The translations under genes and the position numbers were made by a program. Below, piece by piece: positions 8,267-37,500 of a stretch of 64,000 bases of DNA. Source of the stretch: a candidate division WOR-3 bacterium (GTDB lineage: Bacteria; Hydrothermota; Hydrothermia; B15-G9); contig WGAI01000067.1 of assembly GCA_015489175.1 (NCBI GenBank), forward strand, positions 1,799 to 65,798, written 5' to 3'. A model generated the notes under the pieces. It ran no database searches. It worked only from the letters and a program-made list of their open reading frames with translations, and was not told where the DNA came from. The number at the start of each line of letters is the position of its first letter. Position 1 is the first letter of the stretch.

Positions 8267-8270
8267 CGCT

Positions 8271-9059
8271 TCAAATGCTCCTATTTTTAAATTCAGCGAA
8301 TTTTCTGTCTATTTCATCCCTTAATCCCTCTCCTGCTTCCTGAAATACATCTAACAACTCATCGTATATGTCATCGCCTGTAACAAAATTCCAAAATTCC
8401 TCTCCAACCAGGATCTCTCCTCTATCCAGGTCATATAAGCCTTTCAAAGTCCACCGTTCATAAGGCCGGGGATGGTAAGGGTTGTAAGGAATTGCGAGCC
8501 TCGTAAATACCTCAACATTTTTATCCTGGCTCAATCTCAACGCCGTCCATCTTAAGAGCTTCAGCTTTAATGCTGAGAACTCTTTCATGTTGGGTTTTGC
8601 ACTGGTTATGTCAAAGTAATTTTCAACATCGCCGATTTTTACAAATAAATCCACTCTCGAATCGGGATCTTTCCTGGGAGTTCCTTTCCTGATGCTTTTT
8701 CTTATAAGCTCAATTTCCTCTAATTTACTTACCTGTCTTACACCTGCCCTTAAATCATAGTGTATGGTTTGGATAAGTTTTTCGGTTTCAGGGTCTATGT
8801 TACCCAGTAAATCATATTGTCTTTTGGCTTGAAACCCGGCGCTTTCAGCAAGAATTACAGCAACCTGTTCCCATATAGAAATTCCAAATGTAGTATTCAT
8901 TGATTGGATGAACGAGAACATAGCATATCTATCCCTCCCTAACAACCTAAAATGAAACGGCATCTGTTTTGTTTCCGGTTTATACTTCCTTAGTTTAGTT
9001 TTTACAATGTTTACCAAGAGATTGCGTATTTTATCGCGAGTTTGCCGTTTTAAACTCAT
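8271..9059 (-). CDS. TdeIII-family type II restriction endonuclease
   Basis: MPFHFRLLG...SFIQSMNTTFGISIWEQ, VDLF...FDITSAKPN (PD-(D/E)xK-like), AIPYNPY, GEEFWNF. Confidence 0.8.
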   Translation of the reverse strand: MSLKRQTRDKIRNLLVNIVKTKLRKYKPETKQMPFHFRLLGRDRYAMFSFIQSMNTTFGISIWEQVAVILAESAGFQAKRQYDLLGNIDPETEKLIQTIHYDLRAGVRQVSKLEEIELIRKSIRKGTPRKDPDSRVDLFVKIGDVENYFDITSAKPNMKEFSALKLKLLRWTALRLSQDKNVEVFTRLAIPYNPYHPRPYERWTLKGLYDLDRGEILVGEEFWNFVTGDDIYDELLDVFQEAGEGLRDEIDRKFAEFKNRSI

Positions 9060-19665: not shown

Positions 19666-20100
19666 ATGCAAGGTGTAGGTCAAAAATTAGAGCAAATTTT
19701 GAGAAGCCTCGAGGAGATGGTTCCCGATGTTGAGGCTATAGTTGTTATAAATGACGAAGGATTGGTCCTTGCTTCATCGGTGCCCCTTGGTTTGGATGAG
19801 GACCGAATAGCTGCAATGGCCACCGTTGCACTCTCTTTAAGTGAGAGGACGATGCGCGAGCTTGATAGGGGCAATTGGGATCATGTTATCATAAGTGGCG
19901 AGAAAGGTATGCTTGTGGTCTATGCTCTTAGCGGTTCACCTGGTGCAATAGCTGTGCTTGCGTCCAGAGAGGCTAAGACTGGAATGATTTTATACCTCCT
20001 GAGGAAGATCGGGGTTGAAATCGTCAATGTGCTTGAAGGGAGAGAGGAAGCAGGAGCCTCTGGGATAGAAGGCACTAATGTAAATCTTCCACCGCTGTAA
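19666..20100 (+). CDS. Roadblock/LC7 (MglB-like) protein
   Basis: VVINDEGLVLASS...EDRIAAM...LSLSER...ELDRG...G.KG...KTGMI. Confidence 0.88.
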   Translation: MQGVGQKLEQILRSLEEMVPDVEAIVVINDEGLVLASSVPLGLDEDRIAAMATVALSLSERTMRELDRGNWDHVIISGEKGMLVVYALSGSPGAIAVLASREAKTGMILYLLRKIGVEIVNVLEGREEAGASGIEGTNVNLPPL

Positions 20101-20116
20101 CATAGGCAAGATTTAA

Positions 20117-20875
20117 ATGAAGTTTATCTGTGGAATCATCTCTTTCGTATTAGGTGCAATTTTTGGCAGTTTCGCGAATGTCCTTATCTACCGTATTCCG
20201 CGCGGAGAATCCATCGTCTTCCCCGGCTCCCATTGTCCCGTTTGTGGGCATCCCCTATCTTGGAAAGACAATATCCCTTTGATTTCGTATATTCTTTTGA
20301 GAGGTAGATGTAGGTATTGTGGAGCTAAAATCTCGTTGCGTTACCCGTTAGTCGAGTTCACGATGGCGGTTCTCTTCACGATCGGCTTTTTGATCACGGG
20401 CCTGCATGTGCAGCTCCTATTCGTATGGACAGCTTTCTTCTTGTTACTGGTTATCTCATGGATAGATGTGGATCATGGGATTGTCCCCGACGAGCTCACC
20501 ATTGCCGGTGTCGTCATAGGATTGGTTGGACATGCATTGCTTGGCGTTCCGAGTTTGTTGACATCGCTCTGGGGATTGGCTGTTGCCCTTGTGCTGGGAT
20601 TTAGTGTTAGATTCCTGGGCAGGGTGTTATCAGGGAGGGAGGCCTTTGGAGAGGGGGATATAACCACCCTTTCTATGATCGGTGCACTTCTCGGAGCTGA
20701 TTATGTATTTGCCGGGATATTCCTTGGTTCCATCGTAGGCCTTATTTTTATTGCAGGTTACTATCTTGTGAGGCGGGAACTGAGCAGGGAAGTGAAGTTT
20801 TGCCCATTTATCTTTGCGAGCGTTGTGATTTACTTCCTTGTAAGCTGGTGCTGCAACATATTTTATATAATCTGA
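20117..20875 (+). CDS. pilD: Prepilin peptidase (A24A)
   Basis: GSFANVLIYRIP, SHCPVC, GRCRYC, ISLRYPLVE, IDVDH..VPD, FGEGD. Confidence 0.93.
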   Translation: MKFICGIISFVLGAIFGSFANVLIYRIPRGESIVFPGSHCPVCGHPLSWKDNIPLISYILLRGRCRYCGAKISLRYPLVEFTMAVLFTIGFLITGLHVQLLFVWTAFFLLLVISWIDVDHGIVPDELTIAGVVIGLVGHALLGVPSLLTSLWGLAVALVLGFSVRFLGRVLSGREAFGEGDITTLSMIGALLGADYVFAGIFLGSIVGLIFIAGYYLVRRELSREVKFCPFIFASVVIYFLVSWCCNIFYII

Positions 20876-20929: not shown

Positions 20930-22744
20930 ATGTGGACACAAGCAGAGAGAAGGGCTCTAAGATATATAGCAACAGGGGAATACGATAAGGCCATCTCCGA
21001 ATATCAGAAATTGCTGTCTGAGGTCGGAGATGACCCGGATATTTATAATGCCATAGGGGATCTGTATATCAAGAAAAAGGATACGCAGAAAGCTGTTGAA
21101 GCCTACCAGAAAGCAATTGAACTATATGAGAAAGATAACCTTGTAGAGAACGCCATTGCAGTAGCTCGAAAGGCTCTCCGTTACGACGAATCCAACAAAT
21201 ACCTCTACCTTACGCTGTCTGAACTCTATGCACAGGTGGGAAGACATGACGAGGCTCTCGGTTACCTCTCGGCGTTCCTCGATAAAGGGGTTGAGCAACA
21301 GGATGTGCAGAGACTGCAGCTGGTTTTTAAGGATATTGCTTCCTCCATTTCCAAGGATATGGAGCGTCAGAAGAGGTTTGAGAGGCTGTTCGAGAAGTTT
21401 CGTAAAATTATAGAAGAGTTAGGTGAGCTGAGTCTTGAGGAAGCCCAAAAGTCAGGTGGCGAGAGCATTAAATTTGACAAAGAAACTGGAAAGTTCAGAA
21501 AGACAGATGGTAAGGTGGTGCAGTTCGAGCAGCCTTCGGAAGAAGTGCCTGAACCCAAACAGGAAACGCCGGCTGAGTTGTCCGAAGAAGAGCTTGGGAA
21601 ACTCGCCGAATGGCCTTCTGAGGAAGTTGAGCAAAAGGTGTGGCAGGAAAGCGAAACACCGACCCAGCCCGCTCAAACTGGCAGTCAGGCCGCGGAACCA
21701 TGGGAATACGGCAGCGAGGGCATGGAGTTAGCTCAACAGGAGGTTAAGCCGCCGAAACATGAGGCTGTTCAGGAACCCCTTGTTGAAGTCCCTGAACATA
21801 TCGAGGAGGTAACATCAGCCGCCAAAGAGAAACCCTCTGTCGAGTTTCCTGAATTGGAGGAGGCTCTGGAGATCGGGGATCAGTTTGGAGCTGAGGAAAC
21901 TCCGCAGCAACAGGCTGCCGCAGTTCAAGAGCCTTCCGAAAAATCTGTCAGCGAAGATCTGGATGCCATCCTTGACAATCTCAACGAAATTCTGGAAGAA
22001 GACATGAGCAAGCCTCAGGAGCAGCCAACTGCCACACAGGGGGGGGCGGAAATCGGCGATGTAGAGATGCCTTTTGAAGAGCTGCTGGCGCCACCTGCCG
22101 AACAGACGCCAATAATTGAACAAACTCAGGCTATCCAGCCCGAACCGACGCCTCAGGAACAACCGATATTTCAGGAACCTGTGACCGAACCTGTCGAAAA
22201 ACTGTCACCGGTTGAGGCCTTCCTGAGATCAACCAAAGAGAAGGAGGTAAAACGCAAGAAGGCCTTCCTTGAGGAGATCAGAAAAGTCCCATCAGCAGGG
22301 TATTCCCTTCTGTCTATTCTTCAGGATATAAGCTCATATTTGTCATCGTCGTCTCCGTTGTATTATCCCAATCTTGATCCTGCTGAATTTGGCCGCATCC
22401 TTATGAATATGAAGCTCTACGATGAAGCTTTCCGCCAGTTCCAGAAAGCTTTGCTATATATGAAGCCTTCTGACAAGGCATCGAACATACTGGAAATAAC
22501 TAAGTTCGCCGGCATGGCACTTTTTTATGCCCGAAAATACAGGCTGGCCATTAAACAGTTCGAGAGAGCACTAAAGTTGAACAGTCGCGATCCGGAATTG
22601 CATTATCTGGTCGGCGTGTGTTATGAGCATCTCGGAGATTACAGAAAAGCGCTTGAGGCTTACGAAAACGCATATCTCATAGATGTTGATTTTCGAGATG
22701 TGGCTGAACGGATAAAATCGCTTTCACTCATAGAAAGGAGATGA
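20930..22744 (+). CDS. TPR protein with two TPR blocks and an acidic Glu/Pro/Gln-rich linker
   Basis: N-terminal IYNAIGDLY...AVEAYQKA; C-terminal LHYLVGVCYEHLG...AY..DVDFRDVAERI. Confidence 0.85.
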   Translation: MWTQAERRALRYIATGEYDKAISEYQKLLSEVGDDPDIYNAIGDLYIKKKDTQKAVEAYQKAIELYEKDNLVENAIAVARKALRYDESNKYLYLTLSELYAQVGRHDEALGYLSAFLDKGVEQQDVQRLQLVFKDIASSISKDMERQKRFERLFEKFRKIIEELGELSLEEAQKSGGESIKFDKETGKFRKTDGKVVQFEQPSEEVPEPKQETPAELSEEELGKLAEWPSEEVEQKVWQESETPTQPAQTGSQAAEPWEYGSEGMELAQQEVKPPKHEAVQEPLVEVPEHIEEVTSAAKEKPSVEFPELEEALEIGDQFGAEETPQQQAAAVQEPSEKSVSEDLDAILDNLNEILEEDMSKPQEQPTATQGGAEIGDVEMPFEELLAPPAEQTPIIEQTQAIQPEPTPQEQPIFQEPVTEPVEKLSPVEAFLRSTKEKEVKRKKAFLEEIRKVPSAGYSLLSILQDISSYLSSSSPLYYPNLDPAEFGRILMNMKLYDEAFRQFQKALLYMKPSDKASNILEITKFAGMALFYARKYRLAIKQFERALKLNSRDPELHYLVGVCYEHLGDYRKALEAYENAYLIDVDFRDVAERIKSLSLIERR

Positions 22745-22747
22745 GAC

Positions 22748-23887
22748 ATGCCGTCTCTGGCAGAAGTCCTTATAGGTAAGGGTATTTTTACAAAGGAACA
22801 GTTGACCGAAACCCTTAAGGCATTTAGAGGTTCAGGTAAGTCATTTGAAGAGATACTTGTTGAATCGGGACTTATGGACGATAGGAAATTGGTGGAACTC
22901 ATACTTGCGGTTACTCCTTACAAGTATGTGAACCTCAAAGAATTGGAGATAGATCGCTCAGCCATTAAGCTGATACCTGTGGATATTGCTGAAAGGTTTC
23001 TGGTTTTCCCGATAGCGAAGTCCGGAGATTACCTCTCCTTAGCCATGGCAAATCCCATCGGTAAAGAGGTCTATGATGTTGTGACAAGACTTTCTAACTT
23101 GAAAATCATCCCGTTTGTGGCGAGCATAAGCGATATAAAGTGGGCCGTTGAGCGTTATTACCGCGGAAAAGAAGATGTTGAAAAGGAAGTTGAGCCTGCC
23201 TTTGAAGGGCTTATCATCCATGAAGGGAACAAATTTGCTGTCTCAGTCGCCCGTGATGTGTTAAACCATAAGAAAAAGGGCATCATCATTTTCTATGGGC
23301 CCGAAGGTGTCGGTAAAACATCGCTTTTGAGGGCAGTTTACGACGCACTCGAAAAGTCCGACATGAAAGGCAGGTTTTACAATCCGACCACATTCAAAGC
23401 TTCATACAACGACGCAAAAGTTGATGGGGCTCTTAGATTTTTCTTGAGAGAGTTAGGCATCGTTGATATTTTGCTTTTTGATGACATCGATGGCCTTTAC
23501 GGAGAGAAGGAGGTCTGCCAATCAGTCGGTTATGTTGTTGAAGAGCTTGTTGATAGCGGCAGAAGTGTGTTTTTGACGCTTTCCGGAGGGCTTGAGAGCA
23601 TTCAGATGGCCGGAAACATAAAACTGAGAAACTTGATGGAGGGTGGGCTTTTAGTGCCTATAACGCCTCCTGACAAGAATGTGATGCTGAAAATACTCGT
23701 TAAGATATCAAAAGAAGAAAATGTGAATATTTCAGATGAAGTTTTAAAATTTATAGTCGATAAAGCAGGCTCCAATTTGAGGCGGCTGAGAGGGGCCATT
23801 GTGCAGCTGAAATCTCTTGAGGAATATGCAGGAAAAAGGATACCCGATGAAGTTGCTAAAAGCATAGTGAGGAGGTATTTAACCTGA
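22748..23887 (+). CDS. Fusion: MshEN/T2SSE_N (PilB N-domain) plus DnaA/Hda-like AAA+ domain
   Basis: LAEVLIGKGIFTKEQL..., AIKLIP..IAERFLVFP...LAMANP; then FEGLII.EGNKFA, YGPEGVGKTSLL, ILLFDDID, GGLLVPITPPD, SNLRRLRGAI. Confidence 0.85.
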   Translation: MPSLAEVLIGKGIFTKEQLTETLKAFRGSGKSFEEILVESGLMDDRKLVELILAVTPYKYVNLKELEIDRSAIKLIPVDIAERFLVFPIAKSGDYLSLAMANPIGKEVYDVVTRLSNLKIIPFVASISDIKWAVERYYRGKEDVEKEVEPAFEGLIIHEGNKFAVSVARDVLNHKKKGIIIFYGPEGVGKTSLLRAVYDALEKSDMKGRFYNPTTFKASYNDAKVDGALRFFLRELGIVDILLFDDIDGLYGEKEVCQSVGYVVEELVDSGRSVFLTLSGGLESIQMAGNIKLRNLMEGGLLVPITPPDKNVMLKILVKISKEENVNISDEVLKFIVDKAGSNLRRLRGAIVQLKSLEEYAGKRIPDEVAKSIVRRYLT

Positions 23888-23888
23888 T

Positions 23889-25535
23889 ATGCTTGGTCTA
23901 TCGCTAAAGAGAAGGAAGAAAAATAAGGCAGGAGTTGGGCTCGATCTGGGCAGCAGATTTATAAAACTTGCTGTCCTGGAGAAACGGGGGTCCAGCTTTG
24001 AGTTAAAGAAATATGCTATCGAGGAGATACCTGCTGAGAGCATAGTTGGTAAGGAAATCATGGACAGGCAGGCAGTTGTGGAAACACTTGCTTCACTTGT
24101 GGAGCAGCACGGCCTTGAGGGCGAATTTGTAACTTTCAACATGGCTGGCAAAGGCGTGATGTTGCGTAGAATCACGGTCCCGAAACAGGATCCGAAAGCG
24201 CTTGCTGAATCCATCGAGAGGTATTTGACAGAGAACATACCGTTCGATCTCGCTGATGTGATATGGGATTACAAAATCCTACCCTCAACGGGAACCGAGG
24301 AGGAGATGGACCTTCTGCTTGCCGCTGTCAGAAACGACACGGTTTACTCCATGATCGACATCGTCAAGGAAGCAGGACTTCAGATAGGCGGTATCGACCT
24401 CGATCCTATTGCCATAGAACATACTATGGCAATAAACGAGTATCTCAACGGGGAAGGCGACATATTCGTTTTCCACATAGGTTATGAGAACACGGAGGTG
24501 ATCCTTTTCCGGGATGGCCTTTTTTACGCTTACCGTGACATACCAATTGCCACAAAGATTTACACAGAGGCCATTATGAGATATCTCGATCTCACATTTG
24601 AGCGTGCAATACCCGTTCTGATAGGGACCGAGATCGAAGGGGCTGAATATGAGGAAGCGATGGGGGTTGTGAGATCTATCAACGAAAGACTTGTCGATCA
24701 GATAGATAGGCTGTTCCCGACATTGATTTCGCCGGATGAACTTGAAAAACCGCGCGCCATATACCTGACAGGCGGAGGTGCATGGATCATCGGACTCAGG
24801 GATTTCTTGCAGGATCACTATCAGCTTGCTGTTGACATAGTCGATCCGCTCTTGCAGTTGTCCTATGATACTGAGCTTTTCGGTGAGGAAGACACTCAAC
24901 ATATCTCCCCTATTCTCACAGTTGCAATCGGACTTGCGCTCAAACAGCTTGGTAACGCCACCATCGACCTCGCTCTGTCTCCCGTAGAGGAGAGAAGGGT
25001 TGAGGAAAAGAAGAAAATAAAGATAGGCCTTGAACCGATAGTCGGTGTTTTGAGTGCGGCCGGTCTGGCTGCTTACATTGGCCTGACTTACATGGGACAG
25101 GTATCCAGAATTAAAGAGCTTAACCGGGAAATCGCTGAGACAAGGGGTAAAATACAGGCTCTTAAACAAAAGGTTGATGAGTTGCAGCAATATGAGGAAA
25201 AGAAAAAAGAGGTGGAGGCCAAGCTTGGAGTGATTGAGGAAGTTGCAAAAGGTAGGTTTTTTCAGGTTAGGATAATGGATGAGCTGAATCGTGTCATGCC
25301 GGACGGTGTGTGGATAACAGAACTTTCGGAAACTGGCGGCGGATCTGATCAAGTTACCATAACGCTTAAAGGAGGAGCAGTGCAGCCATTTGATGTCACG
25401 GAGTTTATGAGGAGTCTCGAGGATTCTCCGATTTTCAGCAATGTTGAACTTGTCTCAGTGGAACAGTCACATACAGAAACTGAAGTCTATACATCTTTTC
25501 AATTGAAGTTCACCGCTTCTAACATAGGGAAATAG
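23889..25535 (+). CDS. pilM: PilM-PilN fusion protein
   Basis: VGLDLGSRFIK, IPFDLADVIWDY, LLAAV, YLTGGGA, VAIGLAL; then one TM segment, coiled coil and PilN-like ELNRVMPDGVWITEL...LEDSPIFSNVEL. Confidence 0.88.
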   Translation: MLGLSLKRRKKNKAGVGLDLGSRFIKLAVLEKRGSSFELKKYAIEEIPAESIVGKEIMDRQAVVETLASLVEQHGLEGEFVTFNMAGKGVMLRRITVPKQDPKALAESIERYLTENIPFDLADVIWDYKILPSTGTEEEMDLLLAAVRNDTVYSMIDIVKEAGLQIGGIDLDPIAIEHTMAINEYLNGEGDIFVFHIGYENTEVILFRDGLFYAYRDIPIATKIYTEAIMRYLDLTFERAIPVLIGTEIEGAEYEEAMGVVRSINERLVDQIDRLFPTLISPDELEKPRAIYLTGGGAWIIGLRDFLQDHYQLAVDIVDPLLQLSYDTELFGEEDTQHISPILTVAIGLALKQLGNATIDLALSPVEERRVEEKKKIKIGLEPIVGVLSAAGLAAYIGLTYMGQVSRIKELNREIAETRGKIQALKQKVDELQQYEEKKKEVEAKLGVIEEVAKGRFFQVRIMDELNRVMPDGVWITELSETGGGSDQVTITLKGGAVQPFDVTEFMRSLEDSPIFSNVELVSVEQSHTETEVYTSFQLKFTASNIGK

Positions 25536-25545
25536 GGGGGAAACC

Positions 25546-25971
25546 ATGAAAATTAAAGCGATTGGTTCGTTGATGTTAGCTATTTTTCTAGGAACAATCA
25601 TCTTTACAACATCTTGTAATATGATAGATTACAGAGCTACTGTGTATGGTTATGTGCTATCGGATCCGGATTACAGGAACCCGGTGCCAGATGTAACCGT
25701 TATCCTCAGAGTTACAAGTGTAAACGATGTGCCTGACTACAACACAATTACCGACGATAATGGCTATTACTCGATAAACTTTGAGGTGGGCTTTAAGGAC
25801 GAAAACGGACATTTCATCCCGAACGAAGTCGTAGATGTAATGCTGAGATTCCAGTATGGCGGCTCCACATACACTTTGACCGATTTCAGGGTCTCGGCTG
25901 GCAGCATGGTGATGGCACCTGTCGTTTACCTGTCTCAGTTTGGTAGTGGAGGCGGCGGAGGAGGTAAATGA
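25546..25971 (+). CDS. Putative lipoprotein with a small beta-sandwich (carboxypeptidase-regulatory-like) domain
   Basis: Lipobox-like FTTS-C at residue 24; VYGYV...PVPDVTV...TDDNGYY. Confidence 0.65.
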   Translation: MKIKAIGSLMLAIFLGTIIFTTSCNMIDYRATVYGYVLSDPDYRNPVPDVTVILRVTSVNDVPDYNTITDDNGYYSINFEVGFKDENGHFIPNEVVDVMLRFQYGGSTYTLTDFRVSAGSMVMAPVVYLSQFGSGGGGGGK

Positions 25972-25972
25972 C

Positions 25973-26614
25973 ATGGCACTCGATCTGAAGAGCCTCAAAC
26001 TACCGTCCAATCTCCCGATAAACACGAAATTCCTGCTTGTTCTGGTAATTAGCTTCAGCGCAATAATTTATGTTTACATAAAGTATTCTTATAACCCCAA
26101 AAAGAAGGAAATTGAGGACTTACATCAGCAACTTATCGACCTTAAAAACGATTATGCTGCCCTTCAAGTGCAAGTTCAGAACTTGCAGGAGACAAAGAGG
26201 AAGCTCGATTCTCTGAAAGTTATATGGAGTCGAATCCAGGTCCTGTTGCCGGACAAAAAGGACATTCCGGGGTGGTTTGATGACATAGTTGCGGCTTCCC
26301 GCAGTGCCGGCATCGATGTCATGCAGTTTAAGCCCGCCCCCCCGAAACAGTCCGACAAATATACAGAGTATCCTTTTGATGTAACTTTTCGTGGCACATA
26401 TCACAGTTTTGGCGCCTATCTTGCAGCGATAGCCAACCATCCTCGGATAACAAGGGTTAGCGATGTGAAACTATCATCCATGGACAGGCAGGAGGGCGAA
26501 CCGTGGACGCTTCAAGGGTCGATGACGATCTCCACATTTGTATTCAACCCCGGTTTTCTTGAAAAGCAACAACAGCAGCAGAAAGGAAAGGCCGGCAGCG
26601 GCCAGAAGCGATAG
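25973..26614 (+). CDS. pilO: Type IV pilus assembly protein PilO
   Basis: TM segment, coiled coil, LLPDKKDIP, F.P, GTYHSFGAYL..IANHPRI. Confidence 0.9.
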   Translation: MALDLKSLKLPSNLPINTKFLLVLVISFSAIIYVYIKYSYNPKKKEIEDLHQQLIDLKNDYAALQVQVQNLQETKRKLDSLKVIWSRIQVLLPDKKDIPGWFDDIVAASRSAGIDVMQFKPAPPKQSDKYTEYPFDVTFRGTYHSFGAYLAAIANHPRITRVSDVKLSSMDRQEGEPWTLQGSMTISTFVFNPGFLEKQQQQQKGKAGSGQKR

Positions 26615-26626
26615 GGAGGTGGGTGC

Positions 26627-27331
26627 ATGACAGGTTTACTTGTAATGTTTCTCGTGTCTGCGAGCATAAAAGAAATTAGAACTCAGCAGGTTGGAAAAGA
26701 GGCCGTCGAGATTTCGATTGTGGCGGATGCTCCGATCGACAACTTTGACCATGTGCTTTTGATGCGCCCATCGCTCCGCATAGTCATAAGCATACCCGGA
26801 TTGAGTTACGACCTGCCATCCGACACGGTGAATGTAGGCAAAGGCCCGGTTGACAAGGTAGTCGGATTTGTCAAGTCAAGACGCCCTCTCGAATCCAGAG
26901 TCGTCATATACCTCAGAAAGAGCGTTCAATACAGGGCTACACTGAGCGCCGATAAGAGCGAGTTGATTTTGTTTATTGGTGAGGTCGATACTACCTCCAT
27001 CTCGACCGAAGGCCTGCTTTATTATCCCAGAAGGGCGCCTTTTCTTTACTCCGCTCGATACAAAAGGGATCCGTTCTCCATGCCTAGCCTCAAATCGATA
27101 AGCGATACCCTTCTTGAGGTTAACGGGGCGAAACTCGTGGGGGTTCTTGAGACACCTACGGGCAGAGTGGCCGTTGTAAGAGCATACAATGGCAGGGGGT
27201 TTGTTCTTCATGAACACGATATCGTAAAGAACGGGATCGTGAGCGAGATAGGCAAGGATTATGTCATTTTTACGATAAGCGATTATGGTTTTACAAGGAC
27301 GGTAGTCCTCAGACTTAAGGAGGAGGAATAA
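26627..27331 (+). CDS. AMIN-like domain fused to PilP-like domain
   Basis: P.LRIVISIP...SRVVIYL (AMIN-like); YSARYKRDPF...KLVGVL...AVV...G.V.EIGKD (PilP-like); position between pilO and pilQ. Confidence 0.7.
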   Translation: MTGLLVMFLVSASIKEIRTQQVGKEAVEISIVADAPIDNFDHVLLMRPSLRIVISIPGLSYDLPSDTVNVGKGPVDKVVGFVKSRRPLESRVVIYLRKSVQYRATLSADKSELILFIGEVDTTSISTEGLLYYPRRAPFLYSARYKRDPFSMPSLKSISDTLLEVNGAKLVGVLETPTGRVAVVRAYNGRGFVLHEHDIVKNGIVSEIGKDYVIFTISDYGFTRTVVLRLKEEE

Positions 27332-27333
27332 CT

Positions 27334-28548
27334 ATGAGAAACAAAATAATTTATATTTTGTTGACACTTTTTCTATTGGCTGGCAATGTGGCCTCGCAGA
27401 ACGCTGGACGCGTGAGCGTGGACTTCCAAAATGCTGACATCTCGCTTGTGCTTAAAACATTCTCCGATATAAGCGGCAAAAACATCGTGGCCACCAAGAA
27501 TGTGAAAGCAAAAGTGACGGTTACACTTAAAAATCTGCCATGGCAGCAGGCATTTCAGACGATACTCGACATGTATGGCCTTACTTACATCGAGGATAAC
27601 GGAATTATAAAGGTCATGACCGTGGAGGAATCCAAGCGATTTCGGGAAACAAGGCAGCCTCAAACGCATATTTTCCAGATCAAATATGCGAAAGCTGATG
27701 AATTGCAGGGTGTTGTGTCGCCGCTACTTTCATCGAGCGGAAAAATTGTGGTGGATAAGCGCACCAATTCGCTTGTTATCACGGATGTGCCAAGCGCAAT
27801 AAGGGAGATAGATTCTCTGATACAGCAGCTTGACACACCTACACCTCAAGTCCTGATTCAGGCCAGGGTTGTGGAGATCAATCACAGTGTTGCAAAGGCA
27901 CTTGGAATAGATTGGTCGGCTATCCATCCTGACAACCCGGCGACTGGACTTCCGTTCAATGTCAAAGTTCCACTTGGCACGGCAGCAACAGGAAGCATAA
28001 GATTTGGCAAGTTCATAGCTGGCATGGGCATAGATGCGACCATCGACATGCTTGAGAGCGAGAGTAAGGCTAATGTGCTGTCTCAGCCAAGCATAATCGT
28101 TGCAGATAACCAGCAGGCTGAGATACTTTCTGGTAAACAGATACCGATCATAACGAGGGATATGGCTGGCAATCAGGTTATTCAGTTCTACAATGTTGCA
28201 CTTAGGTTGACCGTAACGCCTCACATAAGCCCTGACAGCACGATAACGCTTGAGCTTAACCCCGAGGTTAGCGATATAGCCGGTGAGGCGCCGGGCGGTG
28301 CAGGTGTGATGATATCCACGCAGCAGGCGAAGACCCAGTTGACCGTCAAAAATGGCGAGACTGTCGTTATCGGTGGCATTATGAGGTCGCACAAGAAAGA
28401 AGGCGAGTCGAGAGTTCCTTTCTTTTCCCGTATCCCGTTGATCGGAATGCTATTTAAATCCAGAAGAGAAGATTCTGAGAAATCGGAACTTATGATTTTC
28501 GTTACCCCAAGAATTATCTCTTATGCAGGAGTTAGTTCCTCTGAATGA
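27334..28548 (+). CDS. pilQ: Secretin, short PilQ type (no AMIN domains)
   Basis: VSVDFQNADI, PWQQAF, IKYAKA, VDKRTNSL, LDTPTPQVLIQARVVE, LTVTPHI, GETVVIGG, IPLIGMLFKS, ELMIFVTPRII. Confidence 0.93.
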   Translation: MRNKIIYILLTLFLLAGNVASQNAGRVSVDFQNADISLVLKTFSDISGKNIVATKNVKAKVTVTLKNLPWQQAFQTILDMYGLTYIEDNGIIKVMTVEESKRFRETRQPQTHIFQIKYAKADELQGVVSPLLSSSGKIVVDKRTNSLVITDVPSAIREIDSLIQQLDTPTPQVLIQARVVEINHSVAKALGIDWSAIHPDNPATGLPFNVKVPLGTAATGSIRFGKFIAGMGIDATIDMLESESKANVLSQPSIIVADNQQAEILSGKQIPIITRDMAGNQVIQFYNVALRLTVTPHISPDSTITLELNPEVSDIAGEAPGGAGVMISTQQAKTQLTVKNGETVVIGGIMRSHKKEGESRVPFFSRIPLIGMLFKSRREDSEKSELMIFVTPRIISYAGVSSSE

Positions 28549-28580: not shown

Positions 28581-31500
28581 ATGAAGAAGATTTTGTCTAT
28601 TTTTATATTGGTGATGGCGGTATCCAATGCAGCTGCGTCTCCGGTTTACATTACGAATGTCGAAGTGGAGCCCAATCCATTCAGTCCTAACGGTGATGGG
28701 AGGGCGGATACAACAACTTTCTCATTCATACTTAGTGGCTATGTGGATACTGTCTATCTAAGGATATTCCGCGATTCGCTTAACACGAGCACAGGGCTCA
28801 GAGACACTGTAATCGACTCTATCGTCGCTGTCCTTACTCCTGGAATTCAGGGTGCCAATGTGATGGCATGGACTAATGTCGAGACCGATCCATCCATATT
28901 GCCGGATGGGCCGTATCACTATTTCATTTACGGTAGCGATACGACGGACACGGCCACAGGTATCGTCTATATAGATAGACAGCCACCTACAATTTACAAT
29001 GTCTCTGTGACACCCAACCCATTCAGCCCAAATGGAGACGGTATCAACGACTATGCTCACATTGCGTTTTCGGTCACAGGCAGTTACCGCCCTGAGGACA
29101 GCCTGTTTTTCCGTAAGCCACCTCTGGGCATTGGTTATCTTCAGCTGTGGTATCAGAACGGTGCAGGTCATGGCGTGTTTGTGGCCAATGCAAAGGTAGA
29201 TTCAGCGGATGGACATGTCGATAACATCATCGAATTCCCTTATCCGGTGTATCTCGCTCTGGCTGTCGGTGGACTTCAGGGGCTTGAGCAGGTCGATCTT
29301 AGGTTCTTCGATTACGCCAACAGGGCCATCGACATTACGGCTCAGCCAAATGAGGACATAAGAATTGGAATACCAGAAACTTACCTGTTGAACAAATTTA
29401 TGTATTTCTCCTCAAGTTCGTTCATCGTGACGAACATGGACTCTCTTGATCCAGGAGTTTCAATCCTGATACCTGTTTACGCATTTACTGGTAACGCATC
29501 GATAACGATCACTGACATCAACAATCAGGTTGTAAGTGTTGTTGATTTCGTGGATGTTTACAGAGGAGATGGTAATTACTTCACGGATTGGGGGCCTGAC
29601 AACATACCCGACGGCCTTTACACATTCAGCATTCAGGCACAGGATGAGTCCTACAATGTGGAGCTTTACACGGGCAATGTGATAGCCAATTCGATACCGA
29701 CAAATGTCGATTCCCTGACCGTTTCACCGTCAGTTATCTCTCCAGCTAACCTTGATGGGCGAGCTGACGCAGCGCTCGTGCAGTTCTCCATCTCCGAAGA
29801 AGCCCATGTGACTGTCAGGGTTTATAACTCTGCTACACAGTGGGATACAACGACGCTTGTCAGGACTTTGATAGGCGATTCTGTCATGCAGGGCGGCAGC
29901 CACTCCTTGACATTCGACGGAAGGGACAACAATGGGAATTTCCTCGCACAGAACAGTGACAGCACATACACCGTCGTCGTCACAGCTTACGATCCATATA
30001 CCCTCGATTCGGATGTCAAATCGGCGCCGATAGTTGTGGACAATCTTTCGCCGTCCTTTGACACACTTTACATCAACACTCTGGTCAACAACACCATCGA
30101 TACCCTTTACGGAAAGGTAAACGAGCCGGGTAGTGAAATTCGCGTCTTTCGCAACGGATATCCCATAGGCATAGCCATCGCCGATTCCATAACGGGTAAC
30201 TTCTCGCTTGTTGTCACCTATGTTGAGGGCATAAACACATTTACAGCAATCGCTTACGATGCAGCATACAACAGTGACACGGCGTCCGTCACGGCTCTCT
30301 GCGACCTTCATGCCCCGACACTGGCCTCAAGTTCGCCTTTCGACGGCGAAGCATTCCAGACTTTCACGATCGCAAACGGCAAAGCTGTTTTGATCGATAG
30401 CATCTATCATGACAGTGCATCTGGTATCGATTGGGCCACCGCATCGGTTCATCTCTACTACGAAAATTATCTCAGAGACACATATCTTGGTTCCCCGATA
30501 ACGCATCTCGGGGATACGCTTTTCATCCCGTTCATCACGGATTCAATAAACGCCCACAGCGGCCATTACAGGCTTATCGTTTCGGTTCAGGACAGGGCAG
30601 GCAACACGATGTTCGATACCGTGAGATTTACGGTCGATAGAGTTGCTCCGACTATTGTCACGATTCCAGATTCCGGTTCACCTACGAACATGCTGGATAC
30701 GGTGATGGCAGTAATTCGGGACTCGATATCTGGCGTTGACACGATCAGCACTACCGTGTCACTTGAGAAACGCAATGTGAGAACGATCGAGGGAACCACT
30801 TTCTGGCGTGGAGATACGGTATTTTTCGTGCCACTTTCTCCGATACCGCGCGATGGCTCTGATGACGGCGAGTATATCTTTGCCGTCGATGCCGTGGATA
30901 AGGCCGGAAACTACACTCCAAAGCGCTCTTTGATTATTTACGACACAAGGCCGCCGCACATAACGACATTCTGGCCGCCTGACAGCTCAACTTTTCAGGA
31001 TTCTGTGACAGGGATCGACACCATATTTGCAGTTGTCAACGACAGCTTTGGCAGTTTCGCCGGCTCAGGCCTTGATGTCAACTTCTCGCTCATAAGGCTT
31101 GTGAACACAAATAACGGGCAGGGTGTGATCGGAAATCAGATCTATCATGGCGATACTCTGAAATGGGCGATCGACCCAACGCTCTACGATCCGGCATACG
31201 GGTTCAATGAAGAGGGCACATACATGATAACCGTCACGGCTACGGACAGCGCTGGCAACTCTGCAGACACATCATCGACATTTATCATCGACCTGAGCAG
31301 CCCGATCGTGACCGAGGTCTATCCAGCTGACAGCGCTTATGTGAATGCGAGCCCTGAAAACATCCACGCCATCGTCGTTGAGAGGGGAAGCGGGATAAAC
31401 AAATCCGCATCTTACATCCACATTTACAGGCCTGACGGTGGCGAGGTGCCCGGAACATACACTTTTGTGGGCGATACCCTGCTGTTCTCACTCGAAAATC

Positions 31501-34500
31501 CGTTCCCTGAGGACGGGACATGGGACGGCCAGTTCACCATAGTCGTTCATGTGGAGGACAATGTCGGCAAGACGGTCGAGGACACATTCCACTTCATTTA
31601 TGACACGCAACCGCCTCAGGTTGTGTGGTCCACGCCGTCTGACAGTTCCTACCTCAACCGCAATTTCGAGACCGATTACAACAGGACCATTAAAGTGCGG
31701 TTGAGCGATGCAACATCCGGACTTGATTTCGGGACAAGCGGACTTAGCATCCTCGTGAACTGGGAAAACTACAACGCCTCACCGTCCAACTACCTGAGGT
31801 TGCCGCCAGATACGCTTGGCTTCCACTTCGATAGCCTAATTGAAGGCGAGATTGAAGTTGTCGTCTGGGGCTACGATCACGCTAACAACCTGTTGAACGA
31901 TACTCTGATCCTCATTGTGGATACCACAAAGCCGAGCGTGGTCTTTGTTCCGGACAGCGGGACTATGACAAATTCGCTCAGCACATTCTCGGCCTACATT
32001 CGTGACCTGTTTGCCGGACCTGACACGGCCAGCACACACCTTGCGGTTTACCGGCTGGACAGCCCGTCCGACACCACTTCGATCGGCCTTGACCATTACG
32101 AATGGCTCGGTGACACCATCGTGTTCTACCCGTATCCTCCGATCGCAACCGATGGGTCAAACGATGGCGAATATCTCATAAGGGCCTATGCTTACGATAA
32201 GTCTGGCAATGTCGATTCAAGCCGAATTTCAACGATTTTCTACGATTCAAAGCCGCCTTATGTCGTTTCTCACTCGCAATCGAGCGGTGCAGATACGCTC
32301 ATAACCGATACGCTGAGCGAGATCTGGGTTCTGCCGTCTGATGCCAACGGATTGAGGTGGGTGTCCGGGATTGATACCAACGGCACTCAGGTCTCAGTTG
32401 TTAACCAGTTCGGCGCTGCGATTGCGGGACACCGTGAATGGCGCGGCGATACGCTCTTTTTCGTGTTCGATAACCCTATATCGGCCGATGGCCGCTACAC
32501 GGCGAGGGTCTATATGGCCGACCTCGTCGGCAACACATCCACGGATAGCTTCAGGTTTGTGGTTGACCTGAATTCACCTCAGATCACATGGAGCGACCCG
32601 GCAGACAGCTCCTATGTCAACTCACCGCCGAACGAGATCAGGATCTTCATTCAAGACCTTGGAAGTGGTGTCAACTTCAATGCGTGCTCGGTCGTGGTTT
32701 ACACGCCCAACATGGGCACGGTCCTCGGTCACACCGAGGTCAGGAACGACACCATCGTCTTCGTGCTTGAGGAGACACTGCCGACGGACGGCTCCGCCGA
32801 CGGCGTTTACACCGTTTTGGTATGGGGTCAGGACAACAACAACAGGCCGTTGTCACCTTCCAATCCCGATACGCTGATGTTCACATTTGACACGCAGGTG
32901 CCTCAGCTCGTGAGCTACTATCCGACTCGCGATACGGCACTTAACCAGTTCAATTCGCCCGAATTCGGGCCTGACACCATATTCGCAAGGCTTAGAGATG
33001 CGACAGCCGGCGTGGATCTCACGACAAGCGACCTGACCCTTCTCAAATACGGGTTGCCTATAAGCGGTGTGGCAGTCACGCGGCGTTCAGCCGATACCAC
33101 TTTGATAATGGCCCTGCCATCAGGTCTTGAGGAGGGCAGATATTCGTTCGTCGTCAAAGAGGTCGATTTCGCTCACAACCTCAAGCGCGATAGCATAAAC
33201 TTCGTCTATGACCTCACAGGTCCGGTGATTTCGGCGCTGATGCCAGACAGCGAAAAACTTAACATGATCGATTCGATCGACATCTCGGTCATCGACACGC
33301 TCGCAGGCACTGACACCATGCAGACGAACCTGACTGTCAGACTGTTAGATGCAGGCCGCACGATCGGCGGTGATATAGTCTGGCTGGATCCTTCAACTGT
33401 CAGGTTCGTCCCTGATCCGCCGCTTGCCACAGACGGCTCCGATGACGGACTTGTTGAAGTGGAAACGCATGGATTTGACATGGCAGGGAACGGCTCTGTC
33501 GATACTTCATACCTGATTTACGACACGAGGCCGCCTCGCATTGTGGACGACAGAATCGATTTCTTCCGCGATACGCTAACGCACACGCCTGTCGGCAGTC
33601 TGGTCATGCCGACGGACACCGTAATCGAGGACAGTTTCTTCGGGCTCAGGGTCGCTCTCGATGACAGCTATTTCGGCCGCACCGTTTCCGGGATTGACCC
33701 CGTCAGGAGCACTGCATCGCTCACCTATCAAGGAGGTGCAGCTATACCCGGCATAACGATGGTCAGCAACGATACGCTCTACCTCACGCTTTCCGATACC
33801 ATTCGTGAGGATGACAGGTTCACCGCACGGTTCAACATCGCGGACGAAGCGGGCAACAGCAGCGAATACGAACATAACTTTATCGTTGACCTTTATCCGC
33901 CGGTTCTCGCCGGCACTGTGCCGCCAGATGGCGGATTTATCAATTCACCTCCAACCTATGTGGCGGCCAGCATCTTCGATAACGGGAGCGGTGTCCTTAT
34001 GGACACTTCAGTTACGAAGATCACATTGATCGCTCCCGACAACCATATCGTGCTTGGCTATAACGAATTTGTGAACGATACGCTTTATTTCAGGATCCAG
34101 GAGAACATCGATTCCACGGGCATTGCGGATGGCACATACACGATGATCGTTCGGAGCATGGACAACAGCGGCAAGGGATTTGTTGATACGCTTAGCTTTG
34201 TGCTCGACACGCAGCTGCCGTCCCTCGATTCATCGCTGGCTGTCGTGAACGGAAACGAGTATCCGCTTGAGGATGGGTATTTCAATCAGGCGCCTGATAC
34301 ATTGTGGTTCTACCTCAGCGACAGAACGTCCGGAGCCAACCTCCTTTCGAGCGGAGTTTCGCTCCACAGATACGGCCAGCTTCTTGAGACATCCATTGTT
34401 AGGGATACGGTCAATGATAGGCTTGGCATCGTGCCACTCTCACCGCTTGATGATGGGCGATATTTCGCACGAGTAAGCGTTGTTGACCGTGCTCTCAATT

Positions 34501-37500
34501 TCCTCGTCGATACAGTTTCTTTTGTGATCGACCGTGTGGCACCAAGCATCGATGTGCAGCCCGAAAACGGCGTTGCAGTTAATCGACTCGACACGATAAC
34601 GGTTTACCTCAACGATACGCTTGCAGGAATTGATACGATTACAACCACCGTGTCGCTCACAGGCCCGAACGGCGATGTGCCTCTGAATGTCAACTGGATA
34701 GATGGCGTTCAGGCCATTTGCACCCCTGTTCAGCCGCTTGCCACCAACGGCTCGGACGACGCAGACGACTATGTGATCTATGTTGAGGCCTACGACAAAG
34801 CTAACAATGTATCCGTGTCAAGTGTGCATATAACTTATGATACACGGCCGCCTTATGTTACCGAGAGGTTCCCGGATTCACTCTCACTTGGCGATGTCAA
34901 TTCTGTCTGGGTCAGGTTTGCCGACTCGTTGAGCAGCTCAGTTCACGGCTCAGGAGTGGATTCTGTGCTCTCGATCATCCGCCTGACTCGTGCTGAGACG
35001 GGCGAGGCGATACCGGGTCAGAAGATTGTGCGCGGCGATACTCTGATTTTCAACATAGATGCCGCTTATGCACCGCTTGCAGATGGAAGATACAAGTTCT
35101 ATTCAATCCTTTACGACAAGGCTGGCAACATGGATAGCCTTGAGTATGAGTTCGTCGTTGACACGCGCGGCCCATCGCTTGTTTGGAGCATGCCGCGCGA
35201 CAGTGGATTTATAAACTACCAGCCGCAGGCCATTTACGCATTAATCGCCGATGAGGGCACAGGCCTGAATTACGACACCGCACTTACAAACATTCGGGTT
35301 CAGGGGCCGGATGGCAGATATCTGATAGGTTACAACGAGTTCATCGGCGACACGCTTGTCTTCCACATAACGGATTCGTCCCTCATTGATGGCTACTACA
35401 ATGTAGAAGTCAGGGCGCACGATATGATAGGAAGGCCTTTGAACTACGCGCCTTCCGGAAGCTACGATTCTGTTCAGGTGCTGACATTTGCGATAGACCG
35501 CAGGCCGCCAACTCTCGCATGGAGTTATCCCGCACACGACACGGCAATTCAGAGGCCGGAGGGGCCGTATGTGGTTGAATTCAACGATCTTCTTGCGGGC
35601 ATAAACCTCTCATCAAGTGGCGCGGATCTGATGCATTACGGCGTGCCCGTTGAGATAAACATCACTCGTGTGGATTCCGGCGATGTGGTGATCGGCAACG
35701 ATACGGTGCATGTGACGAACGCACTGGTTATCCAGCCTGTTGATAGCGGCAGTTTCGATGTGGAAGGCCGCTATAAACTCGCGGTTATCGGCGTCGATAA
35801 GGCTTTGAATGTCGTGCAGGATACGATACAGTTCATAGTTGACAGGCAACCGCCTGAGCTGACATTTTATCCTGCCGATAGCAGCTACCTCGATTCTATC
35901 GATAGAATTTATGTGATTGTCAGCGATACGCTTGCAGGTGCGAACAATTCGTCAATCGATTTCGCACTGGTCGGCCCGAACGGTGACATGAGTGGCACCT
36001 TGAGCTGGTATGGCGATACTGCTGAGTTTGTGCCCACCAACCCGTTCCAGCCCGGCGGATATTACGATGGGAAATACAACATTATCGTTTCGGCTTACGA
36101 CCGCGCCATGAACATGGCTTATGGCAGGTCCGATTTCATCTACGACACCAGGCCACCCTATCCGACGATGTTCTATCCGTCTCAGGATTCCGTCGTGCCT
36201 CGTCCTGTGTATTACGCATGGATGAGGCTGACAGATGTGTATGACACCATGCGCGAGGTGTCCGGTGTGGACATAGGCGCGTGCCAGATCGGTGTCCTCG
36301 ATCCGGATGGTGTTACCGTGCCAGGCAACATGGTGTTCGAGGGCGATACTGCGATAAGATGGAGCTTCAGAAACGCAATCATCAGGGATGGAAGATACAC
36401 GGTCTGGGCGAAGTATTACGACCGCGCTGGCAACTTCGATAGCACATCTTACGAGTTCACGCTCGATTTGAACCCGCCTGTGGTCGTTTGGAGCTCGCCT
36501 GAGGACAGCAGTTACATAAATCACTCAATTCAGGATGTGCAGGTGGTGCTTGACGATCGCGGCGGCTCAGGAGTGAATCCGGATTCATCTCGCCTATATC
36601 TCGTTGGACCGAACGGAGATACGCTTTTGGGATCCTTCAGCATAAGCAACGACACGCTCAACTACCACCTCGTTAGCCCGCTGCCGGCCGACGGCTCAGC
36701 GGATGGAGTTTACAGGATGCTGGTGCACGGCAGGGACTATGTGAACGACCCAGCAGTCATCGGCGACCACACCATAGATGATACCCTGATGTTCGTTTAC
36801 GATACCCGTGCGCCATACCTTGTAGCATCTTATCCAATTGACAACGCAATGCTTAACACGGCGCCAGAGACCCTTTGGGTGCAGCTTGGAGATCAGCTCT
36901 CAGGCGTCTCGCTTGGAACGAGCAACCTGACGCTGTTCGTCAACGGCCTCATCGTGCCGGGCACGGTCTATCGCGATGTTGTTCACTCAAGGCTGATGTT
37001 TGTGCCCGATAATCCGCTTACGGACAACGAATACAGCCTTCTCGTCTTTGCAAGGGATACTGCCACCAACGAGTTTGTCGATACGGTAAACTTCATCGTG
37101 GACACTCAGGAGCCGGATGTCGTTATAACGCCCAATGATGGTGCGACCGTCAACCAGCTTACGGAAATCACGATGTCCGTTGAGGACAACATGTCAGGTG
37201 TGGATACGACATTGAGTTACATAAATGTCACAGGGCCTAACGGCGTGGTTGCCGCTCAGAGATATTGGACGGGCGACACGCTTCATTTTGTGCCGACGCC
37301 TCCGCTCAGAACGGATGGCAGCGATGATGGCAGATACACTGCTGCTGGCGTTGGTTATGACATGGCAGGCAACATAGATGTGAACACGATCAGCTTCATT
37401 TACGATACCAGACCTCCGTTCGTTCAGGAATTTTATCCTCAGGACATCCAGATAATGCCGCTGAGAGCGGTCTGGGCAGTTGTGTCCGATACGCTGCCCG

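Follow-up and report, generated by a model that had tools for sequence, protein, structure and literature searches.

A PilB-type N-domain fused to a DnaA-like AAA+ module in type IV pilus loci of uncultured bacteria

We analyzed a stretch of 64,000 nucleotides (the window) from a candidate division WOR-3 bacterium (assembly GCA_015489175.1, contig WGAI01000067.1, positions 1,799 to 65,798 of the forward strand). It contains a gene, here called X, whose product joins the N-terminal domain of a pilus ATPase of the PilB type to the AAA+ module of the replication initiator DnaA. As judged from its sequence, X is a conserved cytoplasmic protein with a PilB-type MshEN/N1 domain, then a DnaA domain III with its lid, and nothing further. 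The gene is an accessory dedicated to a type IVa pilus locus with the order pilD–TPR–X–pilMN–pilO–'pilP'–pilQ, in which TPR stands for a tetratricopeptide repeat (TPR) protein and pilMN for a fusion of pilM and pilN. X is neither a replication initiator nor a pilus motor. The halves of the protein come from known superfamilies, and their combination is an undescribed family of the pilus accessory or regulatory kind. The original prediction, made from the sequence without database searches, had seen the fusion. It missed that the family is large, that its other members keep all the catalytic motifs of DnaA and that X is a degenerate case among them.

The first 140 amino acids or so had been read as MshEN/T2SSE_N-like, and all searches bear this out. 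MshEN (PF05157) matches amino acids 58-142 with E = 3.4e-16 in Pfam, and the PilB model TIGR02538 of NCBIfam covers amino acids 4-149 with its positions 2-147 only (E = 2.6e-17). Among solved structures amino acids 4-143 match the N-domains of PilF (6f8l, E = 1.6e-23), PilB (5zfr, 1.2e-17) and MshE (5htl, 1.7e-9). Further matches are 5tsg and 3jc8, and the PilF and PilB structures span E-values from 1e-23 to 1e-15. The domain is also collinear with the N-domain of the PilB encoded in the same genome (26.6% identity over 158 amino acids, E = 3.6e-14).

The C-terminal half follows DnaA domain III from about position 23201, as had been proposed. Bac_DnaA (PF00308) matches amino acids 151-280 with E = 8e-13, and Pfam places an RFC-like AAA+ lid at amino acids 315-346. 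The DnaA model TIGR00362 (NCBIfam) aligns with amino acids 151-377 over its positions 109-338 of 437 (E = 1.4e-31), whereas positions 1-108 and 339-437 find no match. Among solved structures the best relatives are the DnaA proteins of Thermotoga maritima (2z4r, 3.2e-23), Bacillus subtilis (8bv3, 3.7e-19) and Aquifex aeolicus (1l8q, 6.5e-12). Other families score far worse than DnaA: the next AAA+ family among the structures is VCP with merely 3.8e-5, and the secretion ATPase domain T2SSE (PF00437) reaches 13.5 bits against a cut-off of 24.9 and touches the P-loop alone (amino acids 174-206). A reading of X as part of a defence system was rejected, the PADLOC matches being confined to 24-65 residues round the P-loop with E = 2.9e-4 or worse. 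X is, however, no regular member of the replication families. It scores 110 bits with TIGR00362 against a family cut-off of 343.9, and 49.8 with the Hda model TIGR03420 against 194.8. The DNA-binding domain IV is absent, as had been predicted: the Pfam list holds no match to Bac_DnaA_C, and X ends at amino acid 379, where DnaA domain IV would begin. The matches of both halves exceed chance (E = 1e-16 to 1e-31), and both halves are conserved in relatives.

The fusion is present in other genomes and in an independent assembly. The nearest homologues of X (93, 55, 47 and 49% identical) have the same two domains, and the closest of them (P0001, 93% identical) belongs to a 90% cluster of nine members from several sources on contigs of up to 212 kb. 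A Logan contig of 20,462 nt, likely from the source run, matches positions 22000-24600 without any difference. A contig of 3,565 nt from a different study aligns with positions 22000-23460 at about 90% identity and bridges the junction of the two domains. The ratio of nonsynonymous to synonymous substitution rates (dN/dS) between X and its nearest orthologue (G160) is 0.071, with 0.076 for the N-domain and 0.068 for the AAA+ half; a comparison with genome G184 was saturated and misaligned by one indel and was excluded. X is still functional, because dN/dS is 0.07 and because the Walker A lysine and the Walker B aspartate D245 are kept even in the most decayed orthologues.

In the window the operon runs from a Roadblock/LC7 gene through pilD, a gene for a 604-amino acid TPR protein, X, the pilM-pilN fusion gene, a small Ig-like protein, pilO, a 234-amino acid protein in the position of pilP and pilQ to a protein of 3775 amino acids. 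Thus X indeed lies directly upstream of pilM, the neighbour being the pilM-pilN fusion. The genes are tightly packed. The stop codon of the TPR gene is 3 nt before the start of X, and the ribosome-binding site of X (AAAGGAG) is within the 3′ end of the TPR gene. Likewise, pilMN starts 1 nt past the stop codon of X and has its ribosome-binding site (GAGGAGG) within X.

This arrangement is conserved. With a profile of X we searched 201 genomes of the same phylum and found matches over both domains in 38 of them, distributed over about ten families, and partial matches in four more; the remaining matches are true DnaA or PilB genes. Twenty loci around these matches were taken for a comparison of gene order. 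X is directly upstream of a pilM-pilN fusion in all 20, often with overlapping stop and start codons. The TPR gene was found upstream of X by tblastn in 17 loci, and one of the three misses has only about 280 nt of contig there. Downstream, pilQ is present in 12 loci and most of the others reach contig edges. All 42 phylum genomes with a full or partial X have PilM. By amino acid identity, X and the TPR protein have diverged at a similar pace, which exceeds that of PilMN: the values for X, TPR protein and PilMN are 47.5, 43.5 and 79.7% with genome G184, and 36.4, 38.3 and 58.5% with genome G192. G184 (locus L013) is assigned to the same genus in the genome collection; candidate reasons for the divergence are fast co-evolution or an exchange of the TPR–X pair. 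In three loci of one phylum family (L037:4246-4746, L039:5645-6076 and L040:6042-6530) a stand-alone MshEN open reading frame (ORF) of 144-167 amino acids is found just upstream of X. It sits between N- and C-terminal TPR segments, so that two MshEN proteins are encoded side by side.

The family extends well beyond this phylum. When 1.84 billion representatives were searched with a profile, 114 matched with E = 1e-30 or better. The best 150 representatives at 50% identity were dissected with separate hidden Markov models (HMMs) for the N-domain and the C-domain, and 89 of these 150 have one MshEN domain followed by one DnaA domain-III module. The module forms the C-terminus of the protein, in most cases with a tail of no more than 8 amino acids, and the linkers vary from 1 to 766 amino acids. 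Bac_DnaA scores reach up to 221 bits. The source databases name these proteins 'hypothetical protein', 'ATP-binding protein', 'DnaA ATPase domain-containing protein' or 'chromosomal replication initiator protein DnaA', and among the labelled taxa are Candidatus Hydrothermota, Hydrogenedentota and Acidobacteriota. A search of domain architectures, as proposed with the original prediction, turned up the fusion in many relatives. Some proteins have tandem DnaA domain-III modules without MshEN, and giants of 1250-1990 amino acids combine MshEN, a DnaA domain-III module and a second such module near the C-terminus (tandem and giant proteins: P0035, P0049, P0072, P0090, P0102, P0113, P0130, P0137, P0152, P0164; P0020, P0022, P0159).

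Two groups outside the phylum of the window were compared at the level of loci. Locus searches with the alignment of X itself gave just two irrelevant loci, and a mixed alignment gave true DnaA genes only. In Hydrogenedentota a full-length pilB is present in 71 of 78 loci. Where the C-domain of X could be placed, pilB starts less than 1.2 kb downstream in 67 of 70 loci, the three misses being contig ends, and pilT follows pilB in most loci. In Candidatus Hydrogenedens terephthalaticus (locus L090, checked with Pfam) a family member of 914 amino acids is followed by an MshEN plus T2SSE protein of 575 amino acids. Each of five Hydrogenedentota genomes also has a true DnaA. These genomes hold a third, weak Bac_DnaA match (L139:1498-3330 and L142:7-1950); the two ORFs scanned have an N-terminal DnaA-type ATPase and a tail of about 450 amino acids without family match, and no MshEN. 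The third clade (alignment A5) comprises one record labelled KSB1 and others labelled 'bacterium' or with an automatic label. Of its 11 loci, nine have pilT upstream of X and ten have pilMN downstream. In L237, the only one scanned with Pfam, the order is pilX-like gene, TPR, pilT, X, response regulator, PAS histidine kinase, pilMN. The single-domain response regulator and the kinase (L237:8347-9898) thus lie between X and pilMN, and the start of the regulator overlaps the stop codon of X.

In profile-profile comparison with hhalign, both domains of X align collinearly with those of the Hydrogenedentota family (probability 100%, E = 3.8e-76) and of the third clade (probability 100%, E = 7.3e-75). 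Like X, the members from Hydrogenedentota (700-1200 amino acids, long linkers) and from the third clade (about 450 amino acids) carry the AAA+ module at the very C-terminus and are encoded in pilus loci. Unlike X, most of them keep the canonical DnaA motifs (GKTH, RLxSRF) and one RLG-type motif for cyclic di-GMP (c-di-GMP). Many have linkers of 100-766 amino acids, whereas X is compact and degenerate.

Motifs were counted in 93 family representatives and separately in 30 phylum orthologues. The Walker A, Walker B and sensor II motifs quoted in the original prediction are all present as read. The Walker A residues G187, G189 and K190 are invariant in all representatives and all orthologues. In Walker B, D245 is found in 93 and D246 in 91 of the representatives, and the sensor II arginine (Arg345 in X) in 87. 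The arginine finger is the variable element: the position is R in 79 and L in seven of the 93, and R in 16 of the 30. The alignment also confirms that the segment RLKSRF of DnaA is replaced by KLRNLM in X; DnaA has R-L-x-S-R-F there. The genus-level clade of the window (alignment rows 1-5) has leucine at the finger, has lost the histidine after GKT ('GKTH') and has a changed box VI 'TSDR' (amino acids 274-280). A relative at the family level, P0016, still has the arginine. The finger is likewise present in a canonical orthologue in locus L042. Thus the nucleotide-binding residues persist throughout, and the element for hydrolysis across subunits is dispensable. Across relatives the MshEN half persists while the AAA+ half decays. 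In family f7 (L263:2213-3730 and L264:2629-4008) the slot of X is taken by a protein of 460-506 amino acids. Its MshEN domain is clear and both Walker motifs, A and B, are present, but the other parts of the AAA+ module are barely recognisable or have been replaced, and a different C-terminal extension follows.

We also computed quick trees of the AAA+ modules and of the N-domains, the backbones of which are weakly supported. In the AAA+ tree the 17 true DnaAs, which come from two phyla, fall into a single clade without any fused module (Shimodaira–Hasegawa-like approximate likelihood ratio test, SH-aLRT, 93), and the group of the window (17 rows) is a long-branched clade (SH-aLRT 97). In the N-domain tree the domains of X stand apart from the PilB N-domains of their own lineages. 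Because of both trees, the two halves look like old paralogues and not like recent copies. The trees are compatible with a single origin of the fusion without demonstrating it.

The genome (2.06 Mb, 95.6% complete) has a second Bac_DnaA match in a frame of 458 amino acids on contig C43, in which the sequence of domain IV is visible. On contig C44 it has a pilB-pilT-pilC-pilS-pilR cluster with a full-length PilB that carries its own MshEN domain. X is thus not the DnaA or the PilB of the cell, because both are encoded elsewhere in the genome. A 'split PilB', in which X gives its N-domain to a truncated PilB, was rejected since the PilB of the genome is full length with its own MshEN. The genome's own DnaA (locus L003) has a very long branch of 1.81 changes per column and scores 60 bits with the HMM of the X C-domain versus 82-102 for 12 other DnaAs of the phylum.

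Table 1. Coordinates of gene X, its domains and motifs, and the neighbouring genes in the window
Feature	Position	Strand	Evidence or description
Gene X, MshEN plus DnaA-domain-III fusion	22748..23887	+	ATG start, uninterrupted ORF, 379 aa, stop TGA 23885-23887
N-terminal PilB-type MshEN/N1 domain, aa 1-148	22748..23191	+	PF05157, PilF/PilB/MshE structures
DnaA domain-III AAA+ module with lid, aa 151-379, without domain IV	23198..23884	+	PF00308, TIGR00362, DnaA structures
Walker A GPEGVGKT, aa 184-191	23297..23320	+	invariant residues in alignments
Walker B LLFDDID, aa 242-248	23471..23491	+	family alignment
Box VII equivalent KLRNLM, aa 292-297; arginine-finger position is Leu296	23621..23638	+	alignment to T. 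maritima DnaA
Sensor II / box VIII equivalent NLRRLRGA, aa 343-350; Arg345 kept	23774..23797	+	family alignment
Roadblock/LC7 (MglB-like), operon head before pilD	19666-20100	+	Pfam
Prepilin peptidase PilD	20117..20875	+	PF06750 E 1.1e-36, PF01478 E 1.6e-15
604-aa TPR protein	20930..22744	+	Pfam TPR families
PilM-PilN fusion, 548 aa; PilM part is aa 1-365	23889..25535	+	PF11104 E 1.8e-42, PF05137 E 1.9e-19; TIGR01175 187.4 vs cut-off 133
PilO	25940..26614	+	PF04350 E 6.4e-27
234-aa protein in PilP position	26627..27331	+	no family; conserved in orthologous loci
Secretin PilQ	27334..28548	+	PF00263 E 8.2e-50

Some of the neighbours deserve comment. The protein in the position of PilP has no match in Pfam or NCBIfam. 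The TPR protein has only sub-threshold matches in NCBIfam (PilW 52 against a cut-off of 154, SgmX 48.7 against 1800), and no signal peptide was seen on reading its sequence. None of the 20 orthologous loci has a counterpart of the Roadblock/LC7 gene, which was therefore rejected as part of the X module. No MglA-like gene was noticed next to the window copy. Right after pilQ the ORF of 3775 amino acids (28581-39908, plus strand) has many repeated modules of about 100 amino acids (Ig-like, with 'D(S/T)..P' periodicity) and may code for a giant adhesin or cell-surface protein. Elsewhere in the window, a region of low guanine plus cytosine content (0.37-0.43 versus about 0.48 around) at 5927-9059 on the minus strand has a TdeIII-type restriction endonuclease (PF09520, E = 1.1e-62) beside an ORF of 779 amino acids with a weak match to DUF1156 (PF06634, E = 2.5e-6); the two are probably a restriction-modification pair.

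On balance we favour, with some caution, the reading of X as an accessory of the pilus locus, a nucleotide-binding adaptor docked with its N-domain on the ring of PilM(-PilN). The mechanism could be as follows. The N-domain of X would dock on the ring that PilM, in this case joined to PilN, forms in the cytoplasm, much as the N1 domain of PilB/GspE is held to do on PilM/GspL. In a 2024 review on PilB cofactors, PilB is described as docking in a socket of PilM, the contacts between the N1 domain and PilM being deduced from the GspE-GspL structures 4PHT and 2BH1 (PMC11656802). The persistence of the MshEN half in relatives whose AAA+ half has decayed speaks for such docking. It would bring a nucleotide-binding AAA+ module to the socket of the motor, where X could scaffold or gate the access of PilB and PilT, probably jointly with the TPR protein that co-evolves with it. 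In the canonical members ATP-dependent self-association and hydrolysis could serve as a timer or switch; these members would cycle ATP, because their DnaA motifs including the arginine finger are intact. The window copy would instead be a static or ligand-held adaptor, ATP-bound and a poor hydrolase. Most likely it binds ATP and hydrolyses it poorly, because the finger is leucine, GKTH is lost and TSDR is changed, while the motifs of Walker A and B and of sensor II have been retained.

The original prediction had proposed an initiator fold repurposed as a pilus-associated switch. The repurposing fits our data, since the family is found in pilus loci of three lineages and a complete DnaA and a complete PilB are encoded separately in the genome; the switch we infer rather than observe.

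Several points weigh against the adaptor reading. ATP binding by the degenerate module of X is read from its motifs, and docking on PilM is drawn from the analogy with PilB/GspE. About 117 of the 159 PilM-bearing genomes of the phylum are without X, and therefore X is not a general requirement of the pilus machine. No gene equivalent to X was found in the slot of X-less pilMN clusters, where pilin-like or unrelated genes lie upstream. Since many PilM genomes are without X and have other genes upstream, X is an accessory of one cluster type, pilD–TPR–X–pilMN. In Hydrogenedentota no match to pilM or TPR was found by tblastn within 7 kb in any of the 78 loci, and a linkage to TPR was rejected for this group. 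The constant neighbour there is pilB and not pilM, so that a PilB partner fits equally well. The weak backbones of the quick trees belong here, too.

The main rival to docking on PilM is a direct action on the motors. The MshEN domain of X would pair with the N-domain of PilB, or X would recruit PilT, and X would act as chaperone, inhibitor or exchange factor. PilT has no N1 domain. We regard such a role as possible, if rather unlikely. It draws on the gene order outside the phylum: in Hydrogenedentota X is directly before pilB and then pilT in most loci, and in the third clade X is directly after pilT, with a gap of 3 nt in L237, the only locus with ORFs listed. In the phylum of the window, however, pilB, pilT and pilC are found on a different contig, and pilMN is the neighbour with which X shows conserved linkage and translational coupling. 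Moreover, we know of no heteromer of two MshEN domains.

A bolder idea looks at the family as a whole and appears improbable to us. The family would be a class of pilus-base regulators not recognised before, held at the pilus platform by the PilB-like docking domain. X and its relatives would bring DnaA-like chemistry there, that is, ATP-dependent helical self-assembly and possibly binding of single-stranded DNA. This could couple the pilus to DNA uptake or, via mixed oligomers with DnaA, to replication initiation, and the window copy would be catalytically silenced. In another reading, which seems very doubtful, X would tether a DnaA-type AAA+ module, able to bind single-stranded DNA, at the pilus base and handle incoming DNA in natural transformation. 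DnaA domain-III filaments bind single-stranded DNA, and many bacteria take up DNA by means of type IV pili. The structure 3r8f is listed with 1l8q among the structure matches of X, and the alignment of X with DnaA passes the initiator-specific helices without deletion. The oligomerisation arginine is lost in X, however, and the idea is purely speculative. The genes comEC, dprA and comF were not noticed in the examined loci, no search having been aimed at them.

A link of pili to replication, in which X acts like Hda or titrates DnaA by joining DnaA-ATP oligomers via domain III, is even harder to credit. The module is a close relative of DnaA domain III, and 79 of the 93 representatives have the arginine finger. 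Hda-like action needs that arginine, but X has leucine. Hda has an N-terminal clamp-binding motif, whereas reading the N-terminus of X, which is MshEN, revealed none, although no pattern search was made. The score with the Hda model is far below its cut-off (see above), and the fused modules fall outside the clade of true DnaAs. Finally, the tblastn and Pfam screens of the neighbourhoods, whose queries were mainly pilus genes, gave no replication gene. The link of pilus assembly to the cell cycle, which had been offered as a second possibility besides the switch, is thus unsupported.

We consider it most unlikely as well that X is a c-di-GMP receptor which couples the second messenger to pilus assembly as MshE and PilB do. 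As described by Wang et al. (2016), MshEN receptors bind with two 24-residue motifs RLGxx(L/V/I)(L/V/I)xxG... that lie 5 residues apart. X keeps this 24+5+24 spacing (amino acids 3-26 and 32-55), the genome encodes at least one clear GGDEF protein, and 37 of the 93 family representatives keep one relaxed motif, typically RLGE...Q. However, the motifs of X start with SLA and SFE, as had been predicted, with S, A and S, E at the Arg and Gly positions. Neither fits the relaxed motif taken from that work, and rows 1-5 of the alignment are the same. None of the 30 phylum orthologues has an RLG start at either motif (alignment read by eye), no representative has both motifs, and the c-di-GMP motif model NF053729 of NCBIfam scores 29.3 against a cut-off of 38. 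The genome's own PilB is also without a c-di-GMP motif. Most likely, then, X does not sense c-di-GMP in the manner of MshE. Finally, the idea that X arose as a chimera during assembly, or that it is a remnant in decay and without function, can practically be dismissed: the catalytic motifs are degenerate in the clade of the window and more decayed versions exist in family f7, but the contig of an independent study bridges the domain junction, the P0001 cluster has nine members from several sources, 38 of 201 phylum genomes have the whole fusion and dN/dS is 0.07 in both halves.

What could the finding mean? The DnaA-type AAA+ module is known from replication control, that is, from DnaA and Hda. 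Here we find a paralogous lineage that is stripped of every part related to the DNA origin and has gained a pilus-motor docking domain. It is fixed in type IV pilus loci of at least three uncultured lineages, namely the phylum of the window (with a relative labelled Candidatus Hydrothermota), Hydrogenedentota and the clade with the KSB1 record. A DnaA-type module in a pilus locus suggests that the pilus machine is regulated or scaffolded in a manner not yet studied, and should interest specialists of pili and of DnaA alike. Within WOR-3, pili have been observed on the cultured isolate sy37 (PMC12285271). For annotation, the label 'chromosomal replication initiator protein DnaA' is wrong for this family and can create false second initiators in genome surveys. 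In one and the same operon slot the module ranges from canonical over finger-less to a barely recognisable P-loop. This natural series lends itself to asking which part is needed by the pilus.

In comparison with known systems, X shares with DnaA domain III and Hda the AAA+ module and its lid. No deletion interrupts the alignment in the Walker A, Walker B and sensor II motifs or in the helices that lie between strand 2 and Walker B. Like Hda, X is without the DNA-binding domain IV. It differs from DnaA in that domains I/II and IV are absent, in the leucine at the finger and in scores far under the family cut-offs of DnaA and Hda. From both it differs by the fused N-domain of a pilus ATPase, by its gene being in a pilus locus and by the presence of a separate true DnaA in the genome. 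With PilB, PilF, MshE and GspE the homology is restricted to the N-terminal MshEN/N1 domain over amino acids 4-143; the N2 domain and the RecA-like T2SSE ATPase domain are absent and both c-di-GMP motifs are degenerate. Other accessory NTPases encoded in pilus loci are TadZ/CpaE of Tad pili and GspA/ExeA or MshM of type II secretion and MSHA systems. Together with FimX and PilZ they resemble X as non-motor proteins encoded with the filament machinery that regulate, localise or help to assemble it, and some bind nucleotide with weak or no turnover. None of them is known to have a DnaA-type AAA+ module or a PilB-like N-domain. The PilB-cofactor review, which treats FimX and PilZ as cofactors of PilB and takes the N1 domain of PilB/GspE to dock on PilM/GspL, does not use the terms DnaA, AAA+ or TPR (PMC11656802). 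We found no published description of an MshEN and DnaA domain-III fusion, although the supplementary domain-architecture tables of Wang et al. (2016) could list it. In summary, X does not have the full set of features that define DnaA, Hda, PilB/GspE or the MshEN c-di-GMP receptors, and has those of an undescribed fusion family.

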